Shown: positions 46,493 through 64,000 of the stretch, one piece after another
How the letters are laid out: every line of letters begins with the position of its first letter
How positions within the stretch are numbered: the stretch's first letter is position 1
NCBI GenBank assembly: GCA_947479645.1
Contig: CANKAJ010000003.1
Span: 4,127-68,126, forward strand
Source of the DNA: Betaproteobacteria bacterium
Lineage (GTDB): Bacteria; Pseudomonadota; Gammaproteobacteria; Burkholderiales; SG8-39
Length of the DNA stretch: 64,000 bases
Reading direction: 5' to 3'
Translations under genes and position numbers: made by a program
The notes under the pieces: model-generated
Database searches by the model: none
The model's input: the letters and a program-made list of their open reading frames with translations, nothing else
What the model was told of the DNA's origin: nothing

Positions 46493-47797
46493 TCAGATGG
46501 TCTTCCGATTGCCTTGGACTAACAGCGGGAAGAAGCTCCGGTCTGCAGAAAAAAGATGGTGCGCAACAACATCATTGGCCAGAAACTCAATGAGACCGCC
46601 CAGCGTTCCCTTGCCGGCAGTCGCATCCGCCTTCAACTCGTATGCTCGTTTCAGCAGGGCAGCATGCGCGCGCTTGTGCGCCCCCAGATGGACATAATGG
46701 TGCTGCTCCAGCAGCGCTTCCTCGTGAGTGAAGTGATGCACGATGTGGGTAATCAGCCGATCCAGCGCGGCATCGAATACGTCGGGGGAAGCTTCCTTGT
46801 TGAAGGATGCGGCCATGAGCGCATTGGCCAGATTAAAAAGCTCACGATGCTGTCCGTCGATGGTCGGCTCGCCGCATTCGTAGGCTTCGGTCCACACCAG
46901 ATGCAGCGCGGAAGCACCACTGGCCGCCGCCCACCTGTCGGAACTGCCCCTGCGATCGACGCGGATGCAGTTGCGTCCGCTTTCCTTGGCCGAATACAAG
47001 GCCGCGTCAACCCTGGAAAACCATTCCTGCACACTTTCGCTTCCCACATGTTCGGCCACGCCCAGGCTGATGGTGACCTGACCGACCGTCGCAAAGGAGT
47101 GCCGCTCAACCTTTGCTCTCAAGGCATCGGCCATGAGAGCCGCATGCCGGTAGCCCGTGGCCGCGGTAAGCACGACAAATTCTTCACCTCCCCATCTGAA
47201 CAAGGTATCCGCGCTACGGATGGACTCCTTGACGAAATTGACCATCTCGACCAATACCGAGTCACCGACCTGATGGCCAAAGCGATCATTGACTCGTTTG
47301 AAATGATCAATATCGATCAGCACCAGAGACAAGGGCTGCCTGAACCGCAGGCTGCGGCTGAGTTCGGACTCCACCATTCGATCCAGATGCGCCCGGTTCC
47401 AGGCCCCGGTCAATTGGTCGGTGGCGCTGAGTTTTTCCAGTTCAAGAATTCGCTGGTAAAGATGTTCAACGTCGGCGCCCCGGGCAACGCCGGGAAACTC
47501 ATTAATGACCAGCAGCACGCCATTGTGCAGCCGGGAAGAATGCGCCCGCGCCTCGCATTCGTGTCCATTGCGGTCCACAAGTCGCAGCACGTACTCCTTG
47601 TCTGCAGCGTGCTCCATCACCGAGCGCAGAAAATCGTGAGTAAGGCTACCCACCTCACAATAGCGATTGAATTGGTCGTTCGAGATCTCGATACGACCGT
47701 TCGCATCAAGCAGTGCCAAGGGGAGAGGAAAGTCCCGGACAAGTTCCTGCACATCGGGATTGGGTCCAGTGGAAGCACCAGTCCTATTCATTTCCAT
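46493..47797 (-). CDS. Diguanylate cyclase with C-terminal bacteriohemerythrin domain
   Basis: DIDHFKRVND.FGH, RSAD I-site, GGEEF; hemerythrin IDGQH, HFTHEE, HKRAH, HLFSAD. Confidence 0.92.
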   Translation of the reverse strand: MEMNRTGASTGPNPDVQELVRDFPLPLALLDANGRIEISNDQFNRYCEVGSLTHDFLRSVMEHAADKEYVLRLVDRNGHECEARAHSSRLHNGVLLVINEFPGVARGADVEHLYQRILELEKLSATDQLTGAWNRAHLDRMVESELSRSLRFRQPLSLVLIDIDHFKRVNDRFGHQVGDSVLVEMVNFVKESIRSADTLFRWGGEEFVVLTAATGYRHAALMADALRAKVERHSFATVGQVTISLGVAEHVGSESVQEWFSRVDAALYSAKESGRNCIRVDRRGSSDRWAAASGASALHLVWTEAYECGEPTIDGQHRELFNLANALMAASFNKEASPDVFDAALDRLITHIVHHFTHEEALLEQHHYVHLGAHKRAHAALLKRAYELKADATAGKGTLGGLIEFLANDVVAHHLFSADRSFFPLLVQGNRKTI

Positions 47798-47842
47798 CCG
47801 AAGTTCTCTCTGTGCTCTGAAGCCCCAAAACCCGAGTCTGGC

Positions 47843-48871
47843 TCAGCCCAATTTATGCAGACCAACCCGCTGTTCGATGGCACGCCGCCCGGCTGGCGTG
47901 GTCATCAGAACCAGCGTATTACCCCCAGCCACCGCAAAGTGTTCCTCCGGATTGAACACCCACTCGCCACCGGCCTTCACTGCCATCAGCACGTAGTCGC
48001 GACTTTTTGGCACCAGCCTCGCCAGGGTCTCGCCTGCGAATTCTTCCGGCACTTCGACCTCCTCAACGCGCAAGCCACGGTCCGTACGCAGCATTTCGTC
48101 AAGAAAGCTCACCACCTGCGGACGGATCATGGATGAGGCGATGCGCATGCCTCCGGTAAAGTCAGGCGACACAATGGCATCCGCGCCGACTCTGCGAATC
48201 TTTTCGATGTAATTCACCTCGTGGCAGCGGGCCACGATGCGGGCAGCCCCATTGAGTTGCTTGGCCGACAGGGTGATGACCAGATTCTTGGCGTCATCCC
48301 CCGTGACGGCAAACACACCGGCTGCGCGCTGAATGCCAGCCTGCTCGAGCAACTCGTCCTCGCTGGCATCACCATGCAGGAAGGAGGTGTCCGGAAAACG
48401 CTCCCGATAGGCGTCAATATGCGCCTGATTGGTGTCAATGACGATGTAGTGACGCCCGGTCAGCGCCAATTCATGCGCGACGTTGCTGCCCACCCGGCCG
48501 ATGCCGCACACAATGTAATGCTGCTTCAGTTCCGACATGCGCTTGAGCATCTTCTGCCTCCTCAGTATCAAATTGAGCTCACCTGCAACCAGGGACGTGG
48601 TCATTTTCGCCATCATGTAATACACGATGGCCATGCCAGTCGCGGCAATGAACACCGTAAACAACCGCCCCACCTCACTATGAGTCAGATCGACGATCTC
48701 ACCATAGCCGATGGTCGCGACCGTAATAAAGGTCATGTAAAAGCAGTCCACCATCGAGTACTGCGGTCCACCGATAATCCGATAGCCGATGGTTCCAACG
48801 ACATGGACGAGCACCAGCGCCGCCAGTGGCCCGGCGAAGGTGGCATAGAAGGACTTGATCAGCGAGTTCAT
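47843..48871 (-). CDS. Potassium channel protein with RCK (TrkA-N/C) domains
   Basis: Selectivity filter TVATIGYGE, HYIVCGIGRVG, GDAS, GADAIVSP. Confidence 0.92.
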   Translation of the reverse strand: MNSLIKSFYATFAGPLAALVLVHVVGTIGYRIIGGPQYSMVDCFYMTFITVATIGYGEIVDLTHSEVGRLFTVFIAATGMAIVYYMMAKMTTSLVAGELNLILRRQKMLKRMSELKQHYIVCGIGRVGSNVAHELALTGRHYIVIDTNQAHIDAYRERFPDTSFLHGDASEDELLEQAGIQRAAGVFAVTGDDAKNLVITLSAKQLNGAARIVARCHEVNYIEKIRRVGADAIVSPDFTGGMRIASSMIRPQVVSFLDEMLRTDRGLRVEEVEVPEEFAGETLARLVPKSRDYVLMAVKAGGEWVFNPEEHFAVAGGNTLVLMTTPAGRRAIEQRVGLHKLG

Positions 48872-48938
48872 TTGCAATAACTGGGTTTATCTCACGCGAC
48901 CCGACATCCTAAGCTTACGAATAGGCTTCCAGCAAGCA

Positions 48939-48952: not shown

Positions 48953-49083
48953 AATAACTGCTCAGTGGCATGGCGGGGCATCAAGACGTGTATTTGGCGA
49001 TTGACTGCAACGTCCGGCAGCGTAGATACTTCGCGCCTGTTGTCGATATTTATGGCCCATTATTTCAATACTGGAAAATTGGC

Positions 49084-50067
49084 ATGTTCATACATAAACA
49101 CAGCCGCAGAAACATGCTTTCCCTGCTTATTGCCGCCCTGCCAGTCCTGATTCCGAGGCCAGCGGTCGCACAAGCCTTTCCGGGAAAGGCCATTCACGCG
49201 ATCATTCCATTCTCTGCCGGTGGCGCTGTCGATGTGCCTGCACGCGTACTCGGCCCCAAGCTCCAGGAAATCTGGGGCCGTCCCTTCGTCATGGACAATC
49301 GGCCTGGCGCGGGAGGAACCATCGGCGCCGCGGAAGTGGCTCGCTCGGCACCCGATGGGCATACTCTGCTGTTCGTGTCCAACACGCATCTGATCAGCGC
49401 CAGTCTCTACCCCAACCTGCCTTATGACGGCGTGCGTGACTTCACGCCCATCATCGAAATGGGATCAGCACCCAATGTGGTGGTGGTCAACCCGGCGCTC
49501 GGACCACGCACGCTGGTGGAACTGTTTGCACTCGCCAAGACCCGGCCCGGCCAGATCAGCTATGCCTCCTCCGGCAACGGCAGCACCCAGCATCTGCTGG
49601 GGGCGCACCTGTGGTCATTGGGCGGAGTAAGCCTGCTGCACGTGCCCTACAAGGGCAGCGGCCCTGCCACTCAGGATTTGCTGGGTGGACGCGTGGATGC
49701 CAGCGTGCCGGGCGTCAACAACGTGTTGCAGCACATCAAGAGCGGAAAACTGCGTGCGCTGGCAGTGACCGGGGCAAATAGATCACGCGACCTGCCGGAT
49801 GTGCCGTCGGTCGCGGAGACCTTTCCGGGATACGAGGGTTCGCTGTGGATGGGTTTGCTGGGTCCGGCCAACATGCCGCGTGAACTGGTGACCCGCATAC
49901 ACAGGGATGTTTCCACCGCGCTGGCGTCCGAGGACGTCAAGCGCGGCATCAATGGAGCGGGCTTCGACATCGAAATCCGCTCTCCGGAGCAGTTCAGCAA
50001 GCTGTTGCTCAGTGAGCAGCAGCGCTGGTCCAAAGTCATTAAAGAAACAGGAGCGAAGGTTGACTGA
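49084..50067 (+). CDS. Bug/TctC family substrate-binding protein
   Basis: IIPFSAGGAVD, DNRPGAGG, PDGHTLL, SYASSGNG, HVPYKG; start uncertain. Confidence 0.9.
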   Translation: MFIHKHSRRNMLSLLIAALPVLIPRPAVAQAFPGKAIHAIIPFSAGGAVDVPARVLGPKLQEIWGRPFVMDNRPGAGGTIGAAEVARSAPDGHTLLFVSNTHLISASLYPNLPYDGVRDFTPIIEMGSAPNVVVVNPALGPRTLVELFALAKTRPGQISYASSGNGSTQHLLGAHLWSLGGVSLLHVPYKGSGPATQDLLGGRVDASVPGVNNVLQHIKSGKLRALAVTGANRSRDLPDVPSVAETFPGYEGSLWMGLLGPANMPRELVTRIHRDVSTALASEDVKRGINGAGFDIEIRSPEQFSKLLLSEQQRWSKVIKETGAKVD

Positions 50068-51345: not shown

Positions 51346-52584
51346 CTATGCGACCAAGCGCAATGCGCCCTTTTCAACCAATTGCGAAACAACATCCTCG
51401 GCGAATCCGGCGTCACGTGCGATTTCGGCGGTGTGCTCGCCCAACCGGGGAGCAACACCTTGGATCTGCGGCTTAAGCCGTGAAAATCGCACAGGAAACC
51501 CGCGCACTCTCTGACTGCTGCCGTCACGTCCCGGCACGTCCTGCACAATACCCAGCGCAACGGTTTGCGCATGCGCAACCGTCTCGTCAGCACGCATGTA
51601 GCGAGCGGCATTGCCCGTATGCTTGCGGATAATATCGACCAGGGTATCAGCCGAGAATCGGGCAAACTCCTTTTCATAGACCTGCCGCAACGCATTTACA
51701 TCCGTACCGTGGCCGGTCGAATTGCGCCCCCGGTGATCGAAGCGCTTGTCCTGCAGAAGATGTTCCGCGCCGATTTCCTTGACGAACTCCACCCAGCCGG
51801 GCCGCCCTTCAGCGCCCACCGATCCGCCAAAAGAAAAAAAGATGGGCTCGTCCCTGGTTTTCCAACCTCGCTCGGGAGGGAAATTGGCCCCACCGACACG
51901 TGGCCCCGCATAGACATCCGGATCGCATTGCGCAGCGATGTGAATGCTCTTCATGGACAATAGTGAATTCAGCAGCGAAAGGTCAACGCGCTGTCCCTTG
52001 CCGGTGCGTCCGCGCGCGAAAATGGCGGCCAATACCGCCTGGACAGCGAACATGCCAGTCCCGGTCGATGCCACGTCGGCGCCAAGGCGGCGCGCCGGCT
52101 GCCCATGCGTGCCGAGGTATCGTGTATATCCCGCCATGGCCTGTGATGTGAGCTCCGAGCCTTGGTAGTTTCTTATCGGACCATGGCGACCCAGTGGAGA
52201 AATATGCACTCGCACCAGGCGTGGATTTGGCAAATAGGCGTCTTCGCAAAGATCCTCAAGACCCAGCGCGCGCAGTTCCTCATCGCTACGATCGGTGATC
52301 AGAACATCAGCCTTGTGCAACAGCGCGTCGAACAATGCGCGCGCCGACGCAGGATTGGGTCCAAGTGCCAGCGAGCGCTTTCCGCGATTCAGATGAAAGA
52401 AAGACGCGCTGTCGCCACCGCTTTCCCCGTTATTGTCAGGCATGGCCGGGGCGGCGCCTCGCAGCCAGTCTCCTTCGGCGCCTTCGATTTTGATGACACT
52501 GGCCCCCAGTTCAACCAGTCGCGCGCCTGCCATCGGACCAGCAATACCTTGCGCGAATTCGATGATCTGCAGCCCCTTGCTCAC
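51346..52584 (-). CDS. Family III CoA transferase-like subunit lacking the canonical catalytic Asp
   Basis: LGASVIKIE, LNRGKRSL, G.GQRVDLSLL, APRLGEHT; VASTGTG where xxDxxxG is expected; GTG start overlapping the upstream stop. Confidence 0.85.
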   Translation of the reverse strand: MSKGLQIIEFAQGIAGPMAGARLVELGASVIKIEGAEGDWLRGAAPAMPDNNGESGGDSASFFHLNRGKRSLALGPNPASARALFDALLHKADVLITDRSDEELRALGLEDLCEDAYLPNPRLVRVHISPLGRHGPIRNYQGSELTSQAMAGYTRYLGTHGQPARRLGADVASTGTGMFAVQAVLAAIFARGRTGKGQRVDLSLLNSLLSMKSIHIAAQCDPDVYAGPRVGGANFPPERGWKTRDEPIFFSFGGSVGAEGRPGWVEFVKEIGAEHLLQDKRFDHRGRNSTGHGTDVNALRQVYEKEFARFSADTLVDIIRKHTGNAARYMRADETVAHAQTVALGIVQDVPGRDGSSQRVRGFPVRFSRLKPQIQGVAPRLGEHTAEIARDAGFAEDVVSQLVEKGALRLVA

Positions 52585-53765
52585 TTTGCCTCCTCCACCG
52601 TGGCCTGCAAGCCATGCAACTCTTCCAGCACTTCCTGTGTGTGTTCTCCTGATTGCGGCGGCGCCTGCACGCTGCAGGGGGTCTCCGAAAAATGCCAGGG
52701 CAGCCCCCCCACGAAAAACTCGCCCCACAATGGCGTATCAAACCGGGCGATCATGTCGTTGGCCAGTATTTGCGCGTGATGGCGATAGGTTTCAAAATGA
52801 TGCGCCATACTGCTCGGCACACCGTGACGCTGCAGAACCCGCAGCCACCAGAAGGCCGGTCGTGAGCGTATGACTGGCACAATCAAGGCACTCAAAGCCT
52901 GTCGATGCGACACCCGCTTGCGGTTATCGGCAAAACGCGGATCAGCAAGCCAATCAGGCTTTTCCAATGCAGCACAGAATCCCTTCCATTGCGATTCATT
53001 GTGCACAGTGATAAAGATTTCACGATCCTGTCCCAGATAGGCGCCATCTGGCACAAAGGCCGCAGACTCACTTCCCCGCGGCGACGGCACGAGCCCGGTA
53101 CCCAGCAATTCGGCATAACGCGTGTACTGGACTTCAAGTGCTGCCTCCAGCATGGAGACTTCAACTTTTTGGCCCTCTCCGCATACTTCGCGGTCCAGCA
53201 GCGCAGCCAGGATCCCCTCGGTGGCAACGGCCGCAGTGGCCAGGTCGATAAATCCGGTGAATCGGAGGGCTTCCACACCCTCTTGCGGAACGCCATTGGA
53301 GCGCGCGAAGCCGGAGAAAGCCTGCATGATCGGGTCGGCGCAGCCTGCGGTGGACAATGGCCCGGTTTCACCGAATCCGCAAATCGCGCAATAGATCAAG
53401 CGCGGATTGCGTGCCTTCACTGATTCGTAATCAAGCTTGAGGCGCTCGATCACACCACCGCGAAAATTCTGCACGAACACATCGCAAGTGGCCATGAGAT
53501 CAAGCGCATCACGGCGCCCTTGCTCGGTCTTGAAATCGAGCACGATGTCCTTCTTGTTGACGTTCATCGAGACATAGTTGGTACCCATGCCCCGTTGCGT
53601 CGGCATGACCCAGCGGGTGCCATCACCCGCCGGTGGTTCGACCTTGATGACCTCGGCGCCCAGCATACCAAGCAGCGCACCGGTCCACGGGCCTGCCGCC
53701 ATGATGCTGACATCCATTACACGCAGCCCCGTCAGCGGCCCTTGCTGTTTTACTTGCATTTCCAC
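52581..53765 (-). CDS. Family III CoA transferase
   Basis: PLTGLRVMD, LGAEVIKVEPPAGD, NVNKKDI, NFRGG, FIDLAT, GQKVEVSML. Confidence 0.9.
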   Translation of the reverse strand: MEMQVKQQGPLTGLRVMDVSIMAAGPWTGALLGMLGAEVIKVEPPAGDGTRWVMPTQRGMGTNYVSMNVNKKDIVLDFKTEQGRRDALDLMATCDVFVQNFRGGVIERLKLDYESVKARNPRLIYCAICGFGETGPLSTAGCADPIMQAFSGFARSNGVPQEGVEALRFTGFIDLATAAVATEGILAALLDREVCGEGQKVEVSMLEAALEVQYTRYAELLGTGLVPSPRGSESAAFVPDGAYLGQDREIFITVHNESQWKGFCAALEKPDWLADPRFADNRKRVSHRQALSALIVPVIRSRPAFWWLRVLQRHGVPSSMAHHFETYRHHAQILANDMIARFDTPLWGEFFVGGLPWHFSETPCSVQAPPQSGEHTQEVLEELHGLQATVEEAK

Positions 53766-53775
53766 CCTCTCCCGC

Positions 53776-54801
53776 CTACAAGGCCTTCAATGAATCGACC
53801 ACCTTGCGCTCGATCACGATACCTTCCTTGAGGCGACGCTCCCGTTCGCGATAAGCCCGCTCTGACGGGATGCGAATCTCGTCAACGCCCGGCTGGCGTG
53901 GTGTCGCCTTGACCTTGCGCACCAGTTCGGACATCTGCTTTTCAAATTCGCCCCCGGGCAGCATGATCGACGGATTGACCGCCCAGAACAGGAATCCGTA
54001 ATCCTGCACATCACCCCGCGTCAACGCAGCACCCGCGAGCAGCCCCAGCGCCTGGATCGCAAAGGACAAGCCGAAACCCTTGTAACCGCCAAATGTGCCG
54101 ACGCCCCCCTTGATGACCGCAGCCGCATCACGCGTCGGGCGCCCATCCTCATCGAAACCCACGCCCTCGGGCAAAGGCTCTCCGATATGGGCGTGCAACA
54201 ACACATCCCCCCACATCAGCGAGGCAGTCCCCATGTCGATGATCACCGGCCCATCCTGCGATGGAAATCCAAAGCAGATCGGATTGGTCCCCAATGCCGG
54301 GCGCTTGCCGCCCAGCGGCAGCACCCGCGGCACCGCACTGGCCACATGCATGGCTACATAGCCCGCTTTGACAATCTTCTCGACAAAATAGGCATTGCGG
54401 CCACTGTAATAGCTGTTATAGGCACCCACCGATGCCATGCCGGATGTACGCACCTTGTCGATGGTGATCTCGGCCGCCCTATAGGCTGCGATATAACCAA
54501 CATTGTTACCGCCATCGATCAGCGCGGACCCCGGCGTTTCATTGACAACGTGTACGGGCGTACGTGTCTTGCTCGTCTTGTCGTCCCCGGCAATGGCCAG
54601 TATGCGCGGCAGGCCGGCAAACTTGTATCCGCACAATGCATTGTCAACCAACTGATCAACGATGATGCGTGCATCCTCGCCGCTGTAGCCTACGCGCTGC
54701 AGCGCTGCCTCGCCAAGCTGGGCGGCTTCGGCCGCGCTGAGTCGCACGGTGTCCGGGCCATCGGCATCCAGCATGCCCTGAGTTGCATTCGGATTTTGCA
54801 C
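53776..54801 (-). CDS. Ldh_2 (malate/L-lactate dehydrogenase, AllD/DpkA-like) family oxidoreductase, atypical active site
   Basis: IDGGNNVG, LGTNPICFGFP, IDMGTA, GGYKGFGL, IRIPSER. Confidence 0.88.
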   Translation of the reverse strand: MQNPNATQGMLDADGPDTVRLSAAEAAQLGEAALQRVGYSGEDARIIVDQLVDNALCGYKFAGLPRILAIAGDDKTSKTRTPVHVVNETPGSALIDGGNNVGYIAAYRAAEITIDKVRTSGMASVGAYNSYYSGRNAYFVEKIVKAGYVAMHVASAVPRVLPLGGKRPALGTNPICFGFPSQDGPVIIDMGTASLMWGDVLLHAHIGEPLPEGVGFDEDGRPTRDAAAVIKGGVGTFGGYKGFGLSFAIQALGLLAGAALTRGDVQDYGFLFWAVNPSIMLPGGEFEKQMSELVRKVKATPRQPGVDEIRIPSERAYRERERRLKEGIVIERKVVDSLKAL

Positions 54802-54848
54802 AGACTGTCCTCATAAGTAGTTTCAAAATGAACACCCGGTAATAATTA

Positions 54849-54929
54849 TGTCATTCCGAGCGCAGCGAGGAATCTGCTGTTAATTCAAACCATAAAGCAG
54901 ATTCCTCACCCTTCGGGTTCGGAATGACA
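54849..54929. repeat. REP/MITE-like palindrome related to the 30689-30781 element
   Basis: TGTCATTCCGAGCGCAGCGAGGAATCTGCT...AGCAGATTCCTC...TTCGGAATGACA. Confidence 0.8.
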
Positions 54930-54949
54930 AATATCTTTGATTCCGGTTC

Positions 54950-55390
54950 TTATTTTTTGCCCGGCCGGAATTGCACCAGGGTGATGTCGGAAGTAATGTC
55001 TTCGAATACCGCTTCAACCGGCATGCCGATCTTGATGTCCTTGACAGCGCAGTCCAGGAAGTTCGTCGTCAGTCGCGGCCCCTCCTCCAGTTGAATCTGC
55101 ACAACCGCATACGGAACCTTGCTCTCAAACCATTTGGTCCAGGGCTTGTGGAATACGACGTAATTATGCAATGTGCCTCGACCGCTCATGCGGTCCCACT
55201 TGAATGACATCGAAAAGCAATGCGGGCAGGCGGGGCCGATCGGATACCAGGATTTCGCACACGAGTTGCAACGTTGCAAAATGATTTCGTGCTTGCGCGC
55301 CCCCTCCCAGAAGGGAAGTTCTTCCGGGTAGATGACAGGGAGGTATCGGCCGGTCTTCTCTTCGACCACTTTGTAGGATGGTTCCATCAC
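54950..55390 (-). CDS. Zn-ribbon/OB-fold (DUF35, ChsH2-like) acyl-CoA-binding protein
   Basis: PFWEG, LQRCNSC, ACPHC, VPY.V..IQLEEGPRL.TN, IGMPVEAVFE. Confidence 0.92.
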   Translation of the reverse strand: MMEPSYKVVEEKTGRYLPVIYPEELPFWEGARKHEIILQRCNSCAKSWYPIGPACPHCFSMSFKWDRMSGRGTLHNYVVFHKPWTKWFESKVPYAVVQIQLEEGPRLTTNFLDCAVKDIKIGMPVEAVFEDITSDITLVQFRPGKK

Positions 55391-56551
55391 TTATCTCCTG
55401 AAAATCACGGTTTCGCCAAGGAAGCTGCCGTACTGGCACACCTCGGCATCCTTCACCTGCCTGGGTCCGCACTCATGCCGCAATTGCCTGATTGCTTCAA
55501 TGAAAAGGTTCCACCCGACGACATGCCCCTCTGACAGCAGCCCACCGGAAGTATTGATGGGCAGTTCTCCGCCAAGCTCGATGCGTCCATCCTTGATGAA
55601 GTCCTTGGCCTCGCCTGGACCGCAGAAACCAAAGCGCTCAAGACCAAACAGAACCAATGGCGAAAATGCGTCGTAGGTAATCAGGAAGTCGATGTCCTTC
55701 TGAGTCACGCCCGCCATCTGGTAGGCATACAGATCCTCTTTCTGGGGCCTGTAGTTGAATACTTCCTGCTGCGCAACACCCAGACCAGGCAGGGTCAGAT
55801 TGTGGAATTGCGGACCGGCATGCACGCCTTGCATCCCCGAGATATAGACCGGCGGCTTCTTGCAATCCCTGGCCCGTTCGGCCGACGTAATAATCAGGCA
55901 CGCTCCGCCATCATTGTTCTGGCAGCAATCGAAAAGTCGCAGCGGCTCAACGATCCAGCGCGAATTCAGGTAATCCTCGCGCGTCATCGGACTGGTGCGA
56001 CAGGCCAGCGGATTGAGTTGGGCGTGCTTGCGGAAAGCCATCGCAATCGGCGCGAGATCATCGCCACTACCTCCATACATGTGGAAATAGCGCTGGGCAG
56101 CAATGGCTGCCCCAAACACCGGCCCCATCGCACCATAAGCCGGCGACTCGCCATGGGGTCCCAACCCCTGACGCCACATTTCAGTGTCCGCAAGCTGCCC
56201 GAAAGCCCTGCGCCTGCGGCCATGTACGATAGCCACGGCCTTTGCCATGCCGCTGGCTACCACCATGGCTGCCTGCTGCAGCATGGGCGCAATAAAGCGG
56301 CCATGACTCCAGCCCTGGTAGGCATAGCGCACGTCTGTGCCCACTGCTTCCAGAAAACGGTCGTAATCGTTGCCAAACGACAACTGAATCAAGCCGTCAA
56401 CGTCCTTGCGCTCCAGACCTGCATCTTCCAGCGCCAGATCGTAGGCTTCCACAGACAGCGCCAGCGCGCTCTTGTCCTGAAAGTTTCCGAGTGTCAGACC
56501 AACTCCGCAAACGGCCGTCTTATCGCGCATTGCCTGCGCCACTTGAGTCAT
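55391..56551 (-). CDS. Thiolase-like protein (SCP-x/Ltp2 type)
   Basis: HAQLNPLA, EPLRLFDCC..NDGG, YDAFS, LPINTSGGLLSEGH; no N-terminal catalytic Cys seen. Confidence 0.88.
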   Translation of the reverse strand: MTQVAQAMRDKTAVCGVGLTLGNFQDKSALALSVEAYDLALEDAGLERKDVDGLIQLSFGNDYDRFLEAVGTDVRYAYQGWSHGRFIAPMLQQAAMVVASGMAKAVAIVHGRRRRAFGQLADTEMWRQGLGPHGESPAYGAMGPVFGAAIAAQRYFHMYGGSGDDLAPIAMAFRKHAQLNPLACRTSPMTREDYLNSRWIVEPLRLFDCCQNNDGGACLIITSAERARDCKKPPVYISGMQGVHAGPQFHNLTLPGLGVAQQEVFNYRPQKEDLYAYQMAGVTQKDIDFLITYDAFSPLVLFGLERFGFCGPGEAKDFIKDGRIELGGELPINTSGGLLSEGHVVGWNLFIEAIRQLRHECGPRQVKDAEVCQYGSFLGETVIFRR

Positions 56552-56575
56552 GTTTCTCTTCCTTCCTGGTTGGAT

Positions 56576-57655
56576 TCAAATAACGATACAAGATTCTGCG
56601 GGCAGCCAGACACGTACGCGGTCTCCTGGAACCGGGAGACCAGGGCGTGCCGGCACTTCCGAAATCAAGATGCAGTTTTCCGAAATTCGGAGCGAATAAC
56701 GAACGCGGTCGCCGAGAAAATCGGCCTCGTCAACAGTACCTTCAAAAACATTGTCCGGGGCACGATCGTCTGCAGTCAGAAGGTGGACCTGATGGTGCCG
56801 GATGATCAGGTTGCGCTGTTTGCCGGAGGCGCCATCCCCAATTTCGGTAACCCGCAATCCCATTCCGCCGGCCAAGCGAAGCATGCCTGAAGCGTCCGTC
56901 AATTCAACCTGCAGCACATTGGCCTGACCAACAAACTCGGCCACAAACAAATGGGTTGGCCGGTCATACAGTTCGCGAGGCGTGCCTTCCTGAATGATTT
57001 CTCCATGATTCATCACACAGACACGGTCGGACAACACCATCGCTTCGATCTGGTCATGAGTCACATAGACGGCCGTTACATTGAGCTCGTTGTGAATACG
57101 GCGAAGCAGGATGCGCATGGAATCGCGCAGGCGGGCATCCAGATTGGACAGGGGTTCGTCATAAAGAATAACGTCAGGATCAGCCACCAGAGCGCGTGCC
57201 AGCGCCACGCGCTGCTGCTGCCCACCCGAGAGCTGGGCGGGATAGCGCTCTGCATAGGCACTTACCGGCAGTTCCACCAGTTCCATCATGCGCTCCACCC
57301 GCTTGCGCTCATCAGTTCCACCAATATTCTTGATCTTCAGCGGGAACGCGATATTTTCATACACCGTCTTGTGCGGCCAGACCGCGTAGCTCTGGAACAC
57401 CATGCCCATGTTGCGCTTGTAAGCAGGAACCGGTTTGCCTTTTCCGCTGACCGGGCGCCCCTGGATCTCGATCACCCCTTCATCGGGCACCTCCAGTCCG
57501 GCAATCATGCGCAATGTCGTGGTCTTTCCGGATCCACTGGGACCGAGCAAGGTTACGAATTCGCCTTTCTCAACGGTGAGATTGATGCCCTTGACTGCGG
57601 CAACCTCTCCGTAACGTTTCCACAGGTTGGTCAGCCTGATTCCTTCTGATGCCAT
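56576..57655 (-). CDS. ABC transporter ATP-binding protein (FbpC/PotA-like)
   Basis: GPSGSGKT, LSGGQQQRV, YDEPLSNLD, YVTHDQ, C-terminal TOBE domain. Confidence 0.94.
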   Translation of the reverse strand: MASEGIRLTNLWKRYGEVAAVKGINLTVEKGEFVTLLGPSGSGKTTTLRMIAGLEVPDEGVIEIQGRPVSGKGKPVPAYKRNMGMVFQSYAVWPHKTVYENIAFPLKIKNIGGTDERKRVERMMELVELPVSAYAERYPAQLSGGQQQRVALARALVADPDVILYDEPLSNLDARLRDSMRILLRRIHNELNVTAVYVTHDQIEAMVLSDRVCVMNHGEIIQEGTPRELYDRPTHLFVAEFVGQANVLQVELTDASGMLRLAGGMGLRVTEIGDGASGKQRNLIIRHHQVHLLTADDRAPDNVFEGTVDEADFLGDRVRYSLRISENCILISEVPARPGLPVPGDRVRVWLPAESCIVI

Positions 57656-57667
57656 GTATTCTTCCCG

Positions 57668-59389
57668 TCAGTCGTGTGATCGAGTTCGGACGTCGGCCCC
57701 GAAGACCCATCGGAATACCACCACGATGGCACCCACGATCAGCAGTTGGACAATGGCCAATGCGCTGGCTATGCCATAGGATCCGTCAATCAGATAGGAC
57801 CAGGTCAGTATCGGCAATGTCACCGACTTGACCCCGTAAAGAATGACCGACGTGCTGATCTCCCGCATCACGATCATGAATATCAGCAGCCATGTCGAGG
57901 CCAGCACCGGTTTCAGCAAGGGCATGTTGACGAACATGAAAGTGCGCAGCGGCGAAGCCCCTGACACGGTTGCCGCCTCCTCGAGGCTACGGTCAATCTG
58001 CGACAGGCCCGAACTGGTCGTTCTGACGCCATACACGAGATAGCGAATCACAAAAGCCAGCATCAGAATCCAGACGGTCAGATACAGCGGCGTTCCAACA
58101 TAAGCCCACAGCATACCGACACCAAATACGGTACCAGGAATTCCAATGGGCATCGCAATCAGATAGTCCGCAAACGCCAGTGGACCACTCTTGCGCCTGA
58201 CCATGCGATAGGCCAGCAGCAATCCGAGCACGGCGCAAATGGTGGCGGCTCCTGTTGCCAGATAGACTGAATTGCGCAAACCCAGCATCATGTCTTCGGC
58301 TACAAACAGTTGCTGAAAATTCTGCAATCCAAGCTGCGCGATCGTCAGTCCGGTGGTGCGAACCGGGATGAGCGCGCGTAACAACACCGCCCCCAGCGGC
58401 ACGGCAACCCCGACAATGAATACGGCCGCGCAAACCGCAAACACGACCGGACGCAGCGGCCCAAGACGGGTGACGGCCGGCTTGTAGCCTCGCGCAGTCA
58501 CCGTGACAAACCGCTCCGAACTGCGGGTCATGCGCCGGTACCAGTACAGGCCTATCGCCGAAATGATCAACAGCAGTGTTCCTGCCGCAGCAGCACCCGG
58601 CAGATCTGAGGGATACGCATTGGTTCTCTGATAGATCGCATAGGCGAGCGTGTCATAACGAATGTGCGACCCCAGAAAGCCTGGTATCGCAAACTGCTCA
58701 AGAGCAAGCGTAAAAATAAACAGCCCGGCGGCGCCAATGCTGCCCACCATGATCGGCACGGTAATGCGCATCAGTCGCTGCCACAGATTGGCACCCGACA
58801 TTTCAGCAGCCTCTTCCAGCGCCGGATCCATGGCCCTGAATGTGCCAACATTCAGGATGAATGCGTACGGAATGAAGTAAAACACCATCACGGCAATGAT
58901 CCCGCCGTATGAGTAGATGTTTATGATCGGTTCAACCGCACCGGTCAGCGCCTGCCACCACACATTGAGCAATCCGGCCCGCGGATCAGCCAGAACCGAC
59001 CAACCGATTACACCGACCAGCGGCGAATAGAGCATGGGAAGGAGGAACAGCATTTCAAACGTCCGCTTCCCGTACACGTCGGTGCGTGTCACCGCCCAGG
59101 CCAGAAACACACCCAATCCACAGGCAATGATCATGACCGGCACCGCCAGGCTGATCGAATTGATGGTCGCCGACTGCGTCCATCCGTTATCGAACAGTCC
59201 GGCATAAACCGACTGAAGATTATCGAGCGTCCAGGTTGCTCTGCGTGAACCGGGACTGTGCGTGCGCAAGGCGCCATACAACAAGGCACCCAGCGGCGTC
59301 AGAACAAGGCCGGCGACGACTGCAAGCAGCCCCCATGACCATACGCGCGCACTCGTCGAGGTCGGCGCCGCCAATGTGGATGTACTCAC
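57668..59389 (-). CDS. ABC transporter permease with two fused domains (FbpB-like)
   Basis: Two EAA loops (LEEAAEMSGA, LEEAATVSGA). Confidence 0.93.
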   Translation of the reverse strand: MSTSTLAAPTSTSARVWSWGLLAVVAGLVLTPLGALLYGALRTHSPGSRRATWTLDNLQSVYAGLFDNGWTQSATINSISLAVPVMIIACGLGVFLAWAVTRTDVYGKRTFEMLFLLPMLYSPLVGVIGWSVLADPRAGLLNVWWQALTGAVEPIINIYSYGGIIAVMVFYFIPYAFILNVGTFRAMDPALEEAAEMSGANLWQRLMRITVPIMVGSIGAAGLFIFTLALEQFAIPGFLGSHIRYDTLAYAIYQRTNAYPSDLPGAAAAGTLLLIISAIGLYWYRRMTRSSERFVTVTARGYKPAVTRLGPLRPVVFAVCAAVFIVGVAVPLGAVLLRALIPVRTTGLTIAQLGLQNFQQLFVAEDMMLGLRNSVYLATGAATICAVLGLLLAYRMVRRKSGPLAFADYLIAMPIGIPGTVFGVGMLWAYVGTPLYLTVWILMLAFVIRYLVYGVRTTSSGLSQIDRSLEEAATVSGASPLRTFMFVNMPLLKPVLASTWLLIFMIVMREISTSVILYGVKSVTLPILTWSYLIDGSYGIASALAIVQLLIVGAIVVVFRWVFGADVRTRSHD

Positions 59390-59419
59390 CTTTTAATACT
59401 TAAGCCGTCAGACTTCTGG

Positions 59420-60556
59420 TCAACGTTTCCAGCCGAGGATTCGTCTCATCTCCGGCATCAACTTCTCGTAGTTCTTGTCCCAGTCATCCATATCCGGAAT
59501 CCAGCGCGCTTTCGCCGGGTAAGGCTGCCACCAACTGGTCTGCTTGAGCTTTGCAATGGCCGAGCGCTGCTCGACCGCCCCCTTCAGGGTCGGTCGAGCC
59601 TGAACCGTCTCCACCGCTTTGGCGCCCTCGGGCGTAAAGAACCACGCGCTGAACAGCCGCGCAGCCGCAGGGTGCGGTGCCTGCTTGGAAATGGCCATGT
59701 AGGTGTTAGTAAATGATGGGGCGACATCCGGATAGGTCCAGGCGGTCTTGTCCCCTTTCAGAAACTCGATCATCGCCACGGAATCCCAGTTCGGGATAAA
59801 CACCGAGATGGCACCGGCAGCCAGATCCTCCCGCCCCGGCGCCGAACCGGGATACAAACGCGGGTTTTGTGCCGCCAGTTGTTCAACGAACTTGCGGCCG
59901 TATTCCGGCCTGCGATAGAACATCAGAAAAGTCGCAAACGCGACCCCGCCACCGGCCGGCTCATTAATACCGATCTTGCCCTTCAATTTGGGATTTAGCA
60001 GACCATTCCAGGTCTTGAACATTTCCTTGGCTTCTGCGTGCGGAATATGATCGGGATTGTAGGAGATGACAATGTCAGTCCACTTTGGACTGTACGCGAT
60101 GCCAGGCAGGTAGGTTCCCTTGTCCAACTTCTTGTCCAGATCGGCGAGGGTATACCTCAGGTACAAGCCCTCCTCGGCCAGGTCGCGCATGCCGGCGGGA
60201 TCGGCCGAATAATTCACGTCCATCACGTGCTGACCGGCACGCTCCTCGGTCATGAACTGCTGGGTTCCCAGAACGCCTACCTTACGATCCGATTGCACCT
60301 TGATGCCAAATCGAGCGGTAAAAGCTCGCGCAAATTCGGCCATTTCATCAACGGGTGAACTGTAGCGCACCAGCAACGTGCCTTCGCGCTTGGCTGCATC
60401 AATCAGACGCGGCGTAATTTCGACGGTTTCGACAGCTTGTGCGTGTGCGGACTGGGATTGCACGCCAAGAATACCGCCCGCGCCGGCTGCTGCAAGCGCG
60501 GTACCGGCCCGCAAAAATGAACGGCGACCGGGCAAGATGATTTTGGAATCTGACAT
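59420..60556 (-). CDS. ABC substrate-binding protein with Tat signal
   Basis: GRRSFLR twin-arginine, AAKREG.L..YS, APHPAAARLF..W. Confidence 0.88.
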   Translation of the reverse strand: MSDSKIILPGRRSFLRAGTALAAAGAGGILGVQSQSAHAQAVETVEITPRLIDAAKREGTLLVRYSSPVDEMAEFARAFTARFGIKVQSDRKVGVLGTQQFMTEERAGQHVMDVNYSADPAGMRDLAEEGLYLRYTLADLDKKLDKGTYLPGIAYSPKWTDIVISYNPDHIPHAEAKEMFKTWNGLLNPKLKGKIGINEPAGGGVAFATFLMFYRRPEYGRKFVEQLAAQNPRLYPGSAPGREDLAAGAISVFIPNWDSVAMIEFLKGDKTAWTYPDVAPSFTNTYMAISKQAPHPAAARLFSAWFFTPEGAKAVETVQARPTLKGAVEQRSAIAKLKQTSWWQPYPAKARWIPDMDDWDKNYEKLMPEMRRILGWKR

Positions 60557-60664
60557 AGCTGCTCCTCCGAGGGGGACTACGCTAGTTTAGAGTTCTTATT
60601 TTTAGACCAACGATCGTAAGCGTATCACTTTCTGACTGTCAAGCTTTCGGCTAACGTTGCCGCT

Positions 60665-62470
60665 TCATCCTGCGCGCAGCGCTTTCCATTTCTTCGGCAG
60701 TTGAATTTCCCTTGCCGTCGGATAACCATCCAGACCGTTGTGCAAGAAAATATAGGCACTGTTGCGTGCCGGGTCACCCGTCACAACGACCATGTAGTCA
60801 TCTGCCTCCCACACGATGGGAACCAGTCGCTTTGGATCATCGGACTCATGGAACACCCGCGGCAGGCGGCCCAGGCGCGCTTCGCTCGCCAGGTTCCAGG
60901 TCGGTTTTTGCGTCCAGTCGCGCAGAATGGTCTCAACCTCGCCTGCCGGCCTGCGCGCAAGGCGAAACAGCTCACGCTTGAAATCCTGCTTGGACCAGCC
61001 GCTGGCGGCCATGGTCTGCGCAAGTATCGGCGACAACATCACCAGCGGGCGCAAAGAGCCTCCGGTCGTGCCAACGGTAAAGGTGAGATGCCAGAAGTGC
61101 TGACTTGCCATCGCCGCTGCGAGATAGGGCATCATCTGTTCCGGCGTGCTGCCCGATACCGAGCCGATATGATTGCCGCCGGCAAATCGTGTAACCGTCA
61201 CCACATTGCTTCCGGCGGGAAAACCCATTTCCTCACTATTGGATTCCCAGCCGATCCTGGAGATGACATCCTCATTCTCGGCAACCACCACACGCCAGGT
61301 ATTGCCAAAAGTCGCCTTGTCATTGCGATGAGGCAGAAAGCCCGCGACATTGCGCAGATAGAGTCTCCAGAATCGGCCGATGGTTGTATTGGCCCGAAAA
61401 CCATCGCGCATGACACCTTGCGTGAAATTGAATCCGAGTTCCTTGATAATCGGCCCATTGATCAGTATCAGCGTGTCACTGCCAGGGGTGTTACCGCTAT
61501 GCTCCACTCCATAGTACGGATCTGCCATCGCTTCGATCAGTGCGACCAATATGGGCATGTACTCCGGACGACAACCGGCCATGACACCATTGACCGCCAC
61601 GCTCCAGACCGTCGCCGCTCGTCGATCAGGCAGCATCACGCCGAGCACATCTCCAGGATCGCGATCGGTATAGCGCAGGAATGCCTCTACCCGCTGGCGC
61701 GTCGGAATGTGTATGGGCAGACCGTCGGAGAGTTCGTTCCGGTAAAAGTAGTCTTCGATCTCATCGGCCGTGCCATGAACGACGATGTCACGTGCGCCAG
61801 GCTCGACATCGGCATCGGCCTGTTCAGGCTGCGTCAGCAGATTGGAGATAACCCTGTCCAGGGTGGATTCGATGATATTGCGCTTCAGCGTCTCGCTGCT
61901 CTGAACACCGGGGTGGCCAGGCACTGCGGCAACCGGAAGATTGGGCATGCCCTGCCCCATTGCAGCTGCCGAAGCCAGGCCCAGAAAGCCATCGCAAACC
62001 AGTGAAGAAGTCGGAACGCCCAGCGCTTCACACGCTGCACTGGCCCGCAACACGGCGGGCGTGCAGCTGCCTCAACAGCCCATGCCGCAAATGACGGCAT
62101 CGACCCCCAGTTCACGAAATCGTCGTGGCAGCGACGCGAGTATGGCCTTCTCATCGGAGCCCTGAATGCTGCCGAACTCGCGCCAGCTTATGAAACGCAC
62201 CCCCGGAAAGCGATCGCGCAGCCCATCTTCAAGACAGGCGAACACCTCGTCACCGCGAAACAGATAATCCCAGAGCTGGACAACAGTCTTTCCTTCAAGC
62301 GTATCCAGACGCCGTGCCAGCGGTCTGGCGGCAGTCTGGCGTGGACTGCGGGGCCAGAATGCCTCCAGTTGCTCGCCCTCTTCAGGCAACACGCTGACAC
62401 TCAGCTTGCGGCCATCGCTTTGGGCACCGCCTTGGGCAGCCTGGCTGATCTTTGTTTTTGACGCCCGCAT
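60665..62470 (-). CDS. UGSC-family selenoprotein (about 601 aa; Sec at UGA 62074-62072)
   Basis: ORFs 62072..62470 and 60665..62053 are in frame: ...DAVICGMGC-TGA-GSCTPAVLRA...; SECIS-like hairpin immediately follows. Confidence 0.88.
62034..62067 (-). promoter_or_regulatory. Bacterial SECIS-like stem-loop
   Basis: GCTGCAC-GCCCGC-[CGTGTT]-GCGGGC-CA-GTGCAGC; begins 4 nt after UGA, apical loop 17 nt after UGA with G in its second position. Confidence 0.8.
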
Positions 62471-62614: not shown

Positions 62615-63859
62615 TCAATTGACTGGTTTGGCAATTTCCAACTTGATGCCACGGGCACCTGGCGCCATTGGCGACGAAACAGCCTCAAGGTCGCCTTTCT
62701 GTGGCGTCGCAAGGCCGGATTTGGAAACACGCGCCACAACCACCACGCGTGGAAATGCGGAAACTTTCAGGGTTGGCGTCATTGCCATGGAATCGTCCAG
62801 CGAAAAATCAAAAGGCAGGTCTTTGACCTGGCGACGCATCACCGCCAGCGGCATGCGTGGTCCTTCTGCCGCTCTTGCAAAAACAAACACGGAATCTTCC
62901 GGCCCCACCTTTGACCCCGCTGAAGGGGAAAGAACGACACGACCACTGAGTGAAGCTACAGGACTCGCCGATACCCCGGGACTCGCCTCAGCTTCCTTGG
63001 ACGCTGACTTGGCTGGCGGCACGCCCATGCGGCTTTCCGCTTCGGCGATACTGCTGCGGACCGAGCCGGCAAATTCCGACTCAGGAGGAACCAATGCCAG
63101 CGCGCGCTTCCAGGATTTGGCTGCGCCGCTGAAGTCATTGCGATTAAAAGCAATGGTGCCGGCAATGGAGAGCGCTTTCACGTTATCGGGATCGATGGCG
63201 AGCGCTCGCGTAATCAGTGCCGCCGGCTCGCCCTCCAGTTTTTTGCCTTGCGCCATGGCAAGCACGTCGGCAAAATCCGCCAGTAGCTGGGCATCCTTCG
63301 GCTGCAGGCTGACAGCCTTCGCATATGCCCGTGCAGCGTCGTCGTAACGACCGACTGCGGCCTTGGAGCGCCCCAGAAGAATCCAGCCATCAATATCGTC
63401 GGGCCTCTCCTTCAGTCGCTCGGCCAGCCGGTTGACCATGCCTTCGATCTGCTCGGCAGTCACCGCATGCGGACTGCCCGAATTGGCTACTGCTGCTTGA
63501 GGGGAAAACGCGTCGGGATTGCCAAGCCAGGAATACAGGCCCGCTGCGAAAAGCGGAACCGCAATGGCAACAACGATGGCTGCCCGCGCCGAGCGCGTGC
63601 GCGTCCCGATTGCTGCGTCCGCGCCATCGTCCAGGACACGTCGCTCAATCTCGCCACGCGCCATTTCCCACTGCTCGCGGGTAAGAATGCCGGCTGCAAG
63701 TTCTGCATCGAGTTCGGCCATCTGCTCGCGATAGATGCCGACATTGCTCGCCAGCATACCGGAAGAAGAAGCACCCTTGCCATCACGGGAAAGCAATGGC
63801 CACAACAACAAGGCAAGCACCAGTGCTACCAGCAAAACGGAAAAAACAACAAAGAGCAT
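62615..63859 (-). CDS. ccmI: c-type cytochrome biogenesis protein CcmI/CycH (TPR)
   Basis: IYREQMAELD, LY..LGNP, TPR repeats, VFVFARA.EGPRMPLA, LDDSMAMTP. Confidence 0.9.
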   Translation of the reverse strand: MLFVVFSVLLVALVLALLLWPLLSRDGKGASSSGMLASNVGIYREQMAELDAELAAGILTREQWEMARGEIERRVLDDGADAAIGTRTRSARAAIVVAIAVPLFAAGLYSWLGNPDAFSPQAAVANSGSPHAVTAEQIEGMVNRLAERLKERPDDIDGWILLGRSKAAVGRYDDAARAYAKAVSLQPKDAQLLADFADVLAMAQGKKLEGEPAALITRALAIDPDNVKALSIAGTIAFNRNDFSGAAKSWKRALALVPPESEFAGSVRSSIAEAESRMGVPPAKSASKEAEASPGVSASPVASLSGRVVLSPSAGSKVGPEDSVFVFARAAEGPRMPLAVMRRQVKDLPFDFSLDDSMAMTPTLKVSAFPRVVVVARVSKSGLATPQKGDLEAVSSPMAPGARGIKLEIAKPVN

Positions 63860-64000
63860 CACTCGGGTTGTACTCCAGATTCCAGAATTTTCTTGGCGCG
63901 CGCACGCTCCGCGTCATCGAGCGGCACTTCCTCGATTTGGGACGTCCGGCGTCGCCGCAGGACAACGAAAAGAAAGACGAACGCGCCGGCAAGCAATGCA
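63859..64000 (-). CDS. ccmH: CcmH/CcmL C-terminal fragment (runs off window end)
   Basis: ALLAGAFVFLFVVLRRRR...LDDAERARAKKIL, with its stop overlapping the ccmI start; consistent with ccm gene order. Confidence 0.7.
   Translation of the reverse strand, partial: ALLAGAFVFLFVVLRRRRTSQIEEVPLDDAERARAKKILESGVQPE

Follow-up and report, generated by a model that had tools for sequence, protein, structure and literature searches.

The UGSC family of selenoproteins (PF24696 in Pfam, NF041046 in NCBIfam) is described, in the available portions of two reviews, as having an unknown function (PMC13188914, PMC9312934). The accessible part of an account of the Global Ocean Sampling selenoproteome guesses at a thioredoxin-like fold for UGSC, records from aquatic organisms a fusion called 'UGSC/Unknown_1', and lists PrdB as UxxC in its Table 2 (PMC2398784). 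According to a table in a survey from 2016, 26 organisms have 33 UGSC proteins between them (PMC5029168), and the portion at hand of one of the reviews assigns the largest selenoproteomes, of 57-63 genes, mainly to anaerobes (PMC13188914). The gene considered in this study encodes a UGSC protein and lies on the minus strand of a stretch of 64,000 nucleotides (nt) from a betaproteobacterial contig (GenBank CANKAJ010000003.1, positions 4,127 to 68,126), which I will call the window and in whose coordinates all positions are given. Eight further genes follow it on the same strand and will be referred to as the module.

The window's protein shares with the described family a match in its N-terminal domain (N-domain) and the U-G-S-C motif, U standing for selenocysteine (Sec). 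It differs in size: the NF041046 model covers 147 positions, while the protein of the window is a fusion of 601 amino acid residues (aa). In this respect it is like 'UGSC/Unknown_1', where the UGSC domain is likewise joined to a second, conserved one of undescribed function, and 'Unknown_1' is likely the same as the C-terminal domain (C-domain) found here. The available part of that account differs in that it mentions neither an expansion of paralogues nor split forms nor a partner reductase (PMC2398784), and the literature that I searched yielded no report of these (an expansion to roughly 30 copies, in this case) or of a Rossmann-like fold for the family.

By analogy, the protein may also be compared with the glycine and D-proline reductases (GrdB/GrdE, PrdB/PrdA), where Sec likewise lies near a resolving cysteine and the substrate-binding part is separate. 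The grd operons take their reducing power from a thioredoxin-reductase-type flavoprotein. There is, however, no sequence relationship between these enzymes and the 38 UGSC family members that I compared (PF07355 matches none of them, and PF09338 matches one, at E 0.16), and no pyruvoyl-forming proprotein was identified.

Taken as a whole, the evidence is best explained if the long-form UGSC protein is a Sec/Cys redox enzyme recycled by a thioredoxin-reductase-like (TrxR-like) flavoprotein and the module is a separate operon; I regard this as probable, though well short of secure. The locus would then be better described as one member of a strongly expanded, reductase-linked selenoenzyme family beside an independent catabolic operon. 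It offers three leads on the UGSC family: an obligatory partner domain, fused or encoded by an adjacent gene; a dedicated, translationally coupled TrxR-like partner; and a genus with about 30 Sec copies of the family per genome. At least 31 Sec genes of one family in a betaproteobacterium of lake water would stand out against the present picture, dominated by anaerobes.

The selenoprotein gene and its decoding

Only with read-through of a TGA codon does the reading frame stay open from 62470 to 60668, and the product then has 601 residues. Its features are the following.

60665..62470, minus strand: long-form UGSC selenoprotein gene, 601 aa, with stop codon TGA at 60665-60667 (Pfam)
62072..62074, minus strand: in-frame TGA, selenocysteine 133, motif GMGC-U-GSC, in the same column in 35 of 35 framed homologues
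62034..62067, minus strand: hairpin resembling a selenocysteine insertion sequence (SECIS), GCUGCAC-GCCCGC-(CGUGUU)-GCGGGC-CA-GUGCAGC, starting 7 nt after the UGA
61838..62359, minus strand: UGSC domain, residues 38-211 (PF24696, 95.4 bits against a cut-off of 25)
60668..61825, minus strand: C-domain, residues 216-601 (386 aa), of no described family

That this is a genuine selenoprotein gene is well supported by the sequence comparisons. A single in-frame TGA within the same motif is found in all 35 framed, near-full-length homologues, drawn from the organism's own genome and from 21 related loci; another 8 homologues were excluded from the count because merging of BLAST pieces had shifted their frame. 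The genome encodes the machinery for Sec insertion, with selB (393.9 bits), selD (422.6) and selA (572.7) all above their cut-offs and a tRNA-SeC with anticodon tca detected by ARAGORN. Reassignment of TGA was considered and ruled out: the codon also serves as the gene's own stop, and so it is not reassigned in this organism. Among the 150 cluster representatives listed, 14 have a Cys form, CG[SAGT]C, and 56 resemble fragments, called by gene finders as starting past the TGA. Close relatives carry the source name 'UGSC family (seleno)protein'. The window's protein passes PF24696 and does not reach the NCBIfam equivalog NF041046 (44.2 bits against a cut-off of 125), which makes it a member of the Pfam family outside the NCBI equivalog.

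With an N-domain profile, 32 UGSC domains were detected in the genome, 31 of them with TGA at U-G-x-C; the remaining one is interrupted by the end of a contig. All 31 TGAs are followed by a hairpin. In 11 cases this is GCCCGC-CGUGUU-GCGGGC, the class present in the window, and in 14 it belongs to a second class, GUCGUGGA-GU(G/A)-UCCACGAC; three of the others are compensated variants of the second class and three are of other sequence. The hairpins that differ from the window's class keep its spacing from the TGA. The two classes overlie different peptides, CTPAVLRAS and CTSWSVHDS. A search of Rfam matched no SECIS family.

Genes for the Sec machinery are themselves embedded in UGSC loci (G000:C13:8444-12050 and G000:C54:2825-9360; L046, L056, L105). 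One UGSC paralogue has selB directly 3' of it, and selA sits between another paralogue and a second TrxR-like gene, whose motif is CADC.

Domains and predicted structure

The full-length protein was modelled with a pLDDT of 87.9 and a pTM of 0.87, and the C-domain alone with values of 94.6 and 0.93. Confidence is low over the first ~27 residues, and the true start may lie further in. Residues 55-218 are modelled as five beta-alpha units of Rossmann/flavodoxin-like arrangement. Structural matches to the N-domain in VIA reach a Z of 11.2, with 257 chains at Z >= 8, and the top 50 are all Rossmann-like in this comparison of the model, with no thioredoxin-fold protein among them. The model thus shows a Rossmann-like N-domain, unlike the thioredoxin-like fold guessed in the literature. 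It places Sec133 on a strand-turn-helix elbow, G-C-U-G-S, after strand 125-131 (strand 3) and before helix 136-149 (helix 3).

The C-domain is conserved and has no described relatives in the collections searched: Pfam matches it in none of the 38 members, and a profile search found no sequence relative in the PDB, where the best profile hit, Hsp104 at E 0.017, was judged to be chance. Foldseek with the whole model returned nothing at E <= 0.001, and the ESM Atlas gave solely clusters that had either no name or an automatically assigned one of the 'thioredoxin family' kind. Conserved features of the C-domain are SDGLPxxPPT, NGVMAGC (with Cys300), Arg366 and Glu398. Over the protein as a whole, the invariant or near-invariant residues are Sec133, Gly134, Cys136 (the same in 38 of 38 aligned sequences), Asp249-Gly-Leu-Pro, Pro256-Thr257, Asn294, Met297-Ala-Gly-Cys300, Gly365-Arg366 and Glu398. 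Representatives of 3949 clusters at 50% identity match the C-domain at E <= 0.001. Some relatives are 700-1250 aa long and have two or three matched stretches (P0190, P0191, P0210, P0230, P0241, P0266, P0270), and so tandemly duplicated or otherwise fused architectures of the C-domain exist.

The only family that Foldseek connects to the C-domain at E <= 0.001 is the N-terminal/alpha domain of class I (Fe-S) fumarate hydratase, in the form of five Leishmania chains (E from 4.1e-4, within a range of 4e-4 to 8e-4; TM 0.23-0.24; identity at most 10%). In VIA the best Z is 6.3 and eleven chains have Z >= 5; this weak set includes matches to the same fumarate hydratase family at Z 6.1 and 5.5, the former being the alpha subunit from M. 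jannaschii (188 residues, root-mean-square deviation 5.3), and also YjgF/chorismate-mutase-like units. Together with the near-invariance of Cys300, these matches speak for a different enzyme, a hydro-lyase like class I fumarate hydratase, with Sec133, Cys136 and Cys300 as ligands of a metal or an Fe-S cluster. I consider this very unlikely. The fold matches are weak, with no chain at Z 8, and the C-domain does not have three conserved cysteines, Cys300 being its only near-invariant one. Two paralogues in the same genome (L056 and L065) have Gly in place of Cys300 and keep U-G-x-C, and for this reason a metal or Fe-S site is ranked low. Moreover, a dedicated disulfide-reductase partner, described in the next section, suits a redox pair better.

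The reductase partner and the paralogous copies

The surroundings of UGSC genes were assessed by clustering 390 neighbouring proteins and comparing the cluster representatives with Pfam. In 12 of a sample of 20 related loci, at 59-74% identity to the window's UGSC protein, a Pyr_redox_2 protein (the 12 loci are from 12 assemblies) (PF07992) is encoded directly downstream in the same orientation. The reductase is 309-352 aa long (309-317 aa in 11 of the 12) and has a CxxC motif in every case, 11 times CAHC and once CAWC. Its best NCBIfam model is thioredoxin-disulfide reductase TIGR01292; the score of 197.6 bits falls short of the cut-off, 343, and the protein is therefore distinct from the housekeeping TrxB. 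The organism's own genome has one such CAHC reductase gene, on contig C13. The start of this gene and the stop of a long-form UGSC gene overlap by 17 nt; this UGSC copy is 69% identical to the window's. When relatives were searched from the reductase side, all seven orthologues at >= 59% identity abutted a UGSC gene, a result not independent of the first, as the two samples come from overlapping collections. One genome has the order UGSC-reductase-UGSC, the two UGSC proteins at 69% and 74% identity respectively. In a tree of 35 rows, a quick maximum-likelihood construction with SH-aLRT support only, the window's protein pairs with L012 (97) inside a clade of seven rows (99) that also contains the reductase-linked copy of C13.

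The reductase-linked UGSC gene often has in its vicinity a paralogue that consists of the C-domain only and is transcribed in the divergent direction (L017, L018, L020, L022, L028). A gene of the alpha-glucan-phosphorylase family (TIGR02094, 475 bits) comes after that paralogue, and some of these loci have a 4HBT thioesterase.

In the mechanism that I propose, the C-domain would hold a small-molecule substrate on which Sec133 would act, either as nucleophile or as redox centre; Cys136 would resolve the intermediate into a selenenylsulfide, and the CAHC flavoprotein would reduce this again with NAD(P)H; on the assumption that it works in trans, one reductase may serve several paralogues. The cycle between Sec133 and Cys136 is plausible, though I would not quite count on it, and I am more doubtful still that the substrates would be small carboxylates, a different one for each paralogue. 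More speculative, and on balance unlikely, is the idea that long-form UGSC proteins are selenium-dependent reductases of a new class, which in a genus of freshwater Burkholderiales would have diversified into dozens of paralogues, each with its own substrate, among genes for TctC solute-binding proteins. Electrons would pass from NAD(P)H to the TrxR-like flavoprotein, then to the Sec/Cys pair on the Rossmann-like domain and finally to the substrate, held by the C-domain as a catalytic domain of no described fold family. If it were true, a probably aerobic heterotroph would have a selenoproteome among the largest known in bacteria, and one family would make it up.

The reductase could be read otherwise. 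It also matches models for AhpF (161.9 bits) and thioredoxin reductase, U-x-x-C resembles redox motifs, and the available part of the ocean survey files UGSC among thiol oxidoreductase-like selenoproteins (PMC2398784). UGSC and its reductase might accordingly form a general antioxidant or disulfide-reductase pair, AhpC/AhpF-like or thioredoxin-like, that has no catabolic substrate. This seems unlikely to me, given that about 31 diverged paralogues per genome (27-74% identity) lying among solute-binding and catabolic genes are unlike a housekeeping antioxidant, that peroxiredoxins have nothing comparable to the large conserved C-domain, and that the closest 50 folds to the modelled N-domain are Rossmann-like and not of the thioredoxin kind. 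It is also conceivable that the Sec residue serves as nucleophile in a redox-neutral reaction, for instance the cis-trans isomerisation or racemisation of a carboxylate, and that the TrxR-like protein just keeps Sec reduced. Most UGSC copies do lack an adjacent reductase gene, and the FAH, DHDPS, PrpD and Amidohydro_2 families found among their neighbours have unsaturated or substituted carboxylates as substrates. Nevertheless, the invariance of Cys136 as resolving residue and the translational coupling of the reductase gene, which suggests a stoichiometric turnover of selenenylsulfide, make a reaction of this kind highly improbable.

A Sec/Cys enzyme served by a TrxR-like flavoprotein is the reading that I prefer. 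In the organism's genome the UGSC domain is fused to the C-domain in 20 of the 32 cases, and the other 12 are small genes, each adjoining a separate gene for the C-domain. A profile search found 37 C-domain matches in the genome, to be compared with 43 matches in another search. Matches to the whole protein at E <= 1e-20 occur in 12 of 31 genomes, own genome included: all ten genomes of the same genus have them, from 1 to 42 each and nearly all with one TGA. Outside the genus they occur in none of eight other genera of the family and in one of twelve other families of the order. A search with the whole protein in a collection at 90% identity matched more than 3996 proteins, mostly fragments of 450-470 aa.

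One genome of the genus has seven long-form UGSC genes within about 35 kb (L101, L102; G010:C88:16000-53500). This island is interleaved with genes for TctC, Amidohydro_2, 2-hydroxyacid dehydrogenase and CoA-transferase, and contains a phage-type integrase gene (L101:15838-17106). In contigs of three lake or freshwater metagenomes, word depth rises 20- to 80-fold over positions 62008-62211 of the window (motif and SECIS) and 57112-57315 (the motif of an ATPase in the module); the peaks fit many paralogous or related copies in those communities.

The eight-gene module and its relation to the selenoprotein

The preliminary description saw nine co-oriented genes on the minus strand, headed by the UGSC gene. 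The list of open reading frames (ORFs) of the window bears this out, and the labels given to the genes agree with those from Pfam and NCBIfam. The eight genes of the module are these.

59420..60556, minus strand: solute-binding protein (SBP) of SBP_bac_6 type with a Tat signal, first gene of the module; twin-arginine motif RRSFLRAG
57668..59389, minus strand: fused double permease of an ATP-binding cassette (ABC) transporter, 573 aa (Pfam, NCBIfam)
56576..57655, minus strand: ABC ATPase with a TOBE_2 domain (Pfam, NCBIfam)
55391..56551, minus strand: thiolase-like protein without nucleophile cysteine, Ltp2-like (Pfam, NCBIfam, alignment)
54950..55390, minus strand: DUF35 protein, ChsH2-type zinc ribbon and OB fold (Pfam)
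53776..54801, minus strand: Ldh_2 family oxidoreductase (Pfam; under every NCBIfam equivalog cut-off)
52581..53765, minus strand: family III CoA-transferase 1, CoA_transf_3 (Pfam, NCBIfam)
51346..~52590, minus strand: family III CoA-transferase 2, CoA_transf_3 (Pfam; start uncertain, since the longest ORF extends to 52728 and the Pfam match begins only at residue 51)

Counted from the UGSC gene onward, the intergenic gaps are 108, 30, 12, 24, 0, 148 and 10 nt; the last two genes overlap. The boundary of the UGSC and SBP genes is crossed by X3 (3514 nt over 57318-60831) and X9 (60538-60755), contigs of DNA from two other studies, which makes the adjacency real in the population and no artefact of assembly.

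The genes of the module look like one catabolic unit. The thiolase-like protein has 6ok1_A, from the Ltp2-ChsH2(DUF35) steroid side-chain aldolase, as its best solved relative (E 5.8e-62), and when it is aligned with 6ok1_A and with 7yvy_A, a canonical thiolase, the nucleophile cysteine proves to be missing. As in the steroid aldolase, which also lacks this cysteine, a DUF35 partner is adjacent: its gene directly abuts that of the thiolase-like protein. There are two differences from the steroid system. Tyr293 of the window's protein aligns with Tyr294 of Ltp2, but His343 stands opposite Tyr344 (Tyr294 and Tyr344 are the two catalytic tyrosines of Ltp2); and the surrounding genes are those of an ABC importer, Ldh_2 and CoA-transferases, with no steroid genes. 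The module would import a compound through its Tat-dependent SBP and ABC system, the family III CoA-transferases would activate it, the Ldh_2 enzyme would oxidise or reduce it, and the Ltp2-like/DUF35 aldolase would cleave a C-C bond. The nearest relatives of the transporter in NCBIfam, all under their cut-offs, are systems for 2-aminoethylphosphonate, for polyamines and of ferric type, and because of this the cargo may be an amine or a zwitterion instead of a simple acid.

All eight genes occur in the same order, at 62-82% identity, on two metagenome contigs, L082 and L083. Upstream of the module in L083 are a TetR regulator, a fused molybdenum hydroxylase with its 2Fe-2S subunit, an alpha/beta-hydrolase and two TctC genes. 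The TetR gene, the 2Fe-2S subunit and the hydroxylase, a fusion of 1075 aa with an FAD domain, lie on the opposite strand (L083:3423-7876) and may hint at a heterocyclic or aromatic substrate.

The preliminary description had the Sec protein reduce or cleave an imported, CoA-activated compound before the aldolase step, as part of one selenoprotein-led operon. What can be said for this is that all nine genes are on one strand, that the junction is found in the DNA of two other studies, that the UGSC and SBP genes are only 108 nt apart with no terminator-like sequence between them, and that two other UGSC copies have an Ldh_2 gene nearby, one in the same genome (contig C23, 2.3 kb away) and one in a related locus (L020, at 54% identity). 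In addition, the closest UGSC relative in one genome of the genus (74% identity) follows an importer of the same make-up (SBP_bac_6, fused permease, TOBE ATPase) and a TctC gene on the same strand, although the ATPase there is merely 37% identical to the window's. The distribution of the genes says otherwise. A metagenome scan from the side of the SBP yielded seven loci (L080-L086), of which L080 and L086 were too short to inform. None of the five informative contigs has a UGSC gene upstream of the SBP gene: L082 and L083, which extend 4.7 kb and 8 kb past the SBP gene on its upstream side, have no UGSC match anywhere, and L081, L084 and L085 have none in the 0.6-2.2 kb that they cover upstream. 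At E <= 1e-30 the module's SBP was not found in 30 relatives, among them ten genomes of the same genus that all carry UGSC genes, nor was it found at E <= 1e-50 in the other 399 genomes of the class that were scored.

Seen from the other side, the window's copy is the only one of 38 UGSC places in the genome with genes for the SBP, the ATPase, the thiolase-like and the DUF35 protein no more than 6 kb away, and the other 37 lack the module. CaiB genes (family III CoA-transferases) lie within 6 kb of 6 of the 38, about what chance would give with 86 CaiB places in 5.74 Mb. In the sample of 20 related loci there was no thiolase-like, DUF35 or module SBP gene; CaiB occurred in seven and Ldh_2 in one. 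The expectation that UGSC genes would be enriched for these neighbours thus failed, and with it the hope that the module's pathway would give the UGSC family a functional lead, as the selenoprotein appears to stand outside it. A selenoprotein-led operon of nine genes is quite unlikely.

I conclude instead that the nine-gene string is, very probably, two units side by side. The selenoprotein gene seems to stand beside the module by chance, and the module would be an autonomous operon, probably with a promoter of its own. A candidate for this promoter, 10 of 12 positions matching the consensus, lies in the 108-nt gap.

60613..60642, minus strand: promoter-like site TTGACA-18-TACGAT

It is the best such site of the region and is followed by a GGAGGA ribosome-binding site, though as a consensus match only it belongs to a set of seven in the region where 5.8 are expected. 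Contigs of one metatranscriptome cover parts of the SBP gene (59719-59869 and 59981-60178) and of the UGSC gene (61367-61614); none spans the gap, and they show neither transcription nor its absence. With regard to what would separate the UGSC gene from the pathway, then, the lack of neighbour enrichment was found, and for separate transcription there is the promoter-like site.

Several observations weigh against the reading as a whole, that is, a redox enzyme with a TrxR-like partner beside a separate operon. No TrxR-like gene adjoins the window's copy, nor 30 of the 31 Sec copies in the genome. The C-domain yields no recognised substrate, cofactor site or catalytic residue. The hairpin of the window is no stabler than shuffled sequence (z = -0.79), and the hairpins of the family have a mean z of only -1.3 against mononucleotide shuffles; the folding energy being unremarkable, the argument for SECIS elements stands on position and compensation. 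In the absence of a terminator, transcription may read through the gap between the UGSC and SBP genes, and the importer beside the 74% relative leaves room for a loose link of UGSC to the SBP_bac_6 type of transporter. Finally, TctC genes lie within 300 nt of 20 of the 38 UGSC places, only some twofold more often than in random placements, which over 300 trials averaged 9.3 and reached 18 at most.

TctC is the commonest neighbour of UGSC genes, with 113 proteins in 48 loci. As a specific partner it was rejected: the enrichment is real yet about twofold, in a genome saturated with 644 TctC places. With TctC and CaiB genes as numerous as this (644 and 86), the bare fact that two genes are neighbours says little about a shared function. 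These numbers are part of a wider expansion in this genome of 5.74 Mb, which has about 644 TctC, 86 family III CoA-transferase, 21 thiolase-like and 17 DUF35 places. The TctC proteins, binding proteins of the 'Bug' type, are the extreme case; the window has an example at 48970-50067.

An ORF of 434 aa on the plus strand opposite the UGSC gene (60701-62005) was considered and dismissed as a shadow ORF of a GC-rich coding region, and not a gene. Beyond the nine genes, the window contains genes for a GGDEF-hemerythrin protein and a TrkA-N/ion-channel protein within 46493-48877, next to the locus; ccmI/cycH, a gene of cytochrome c maturation, lies on the upstream side of the UGSC gene (62615-63862).

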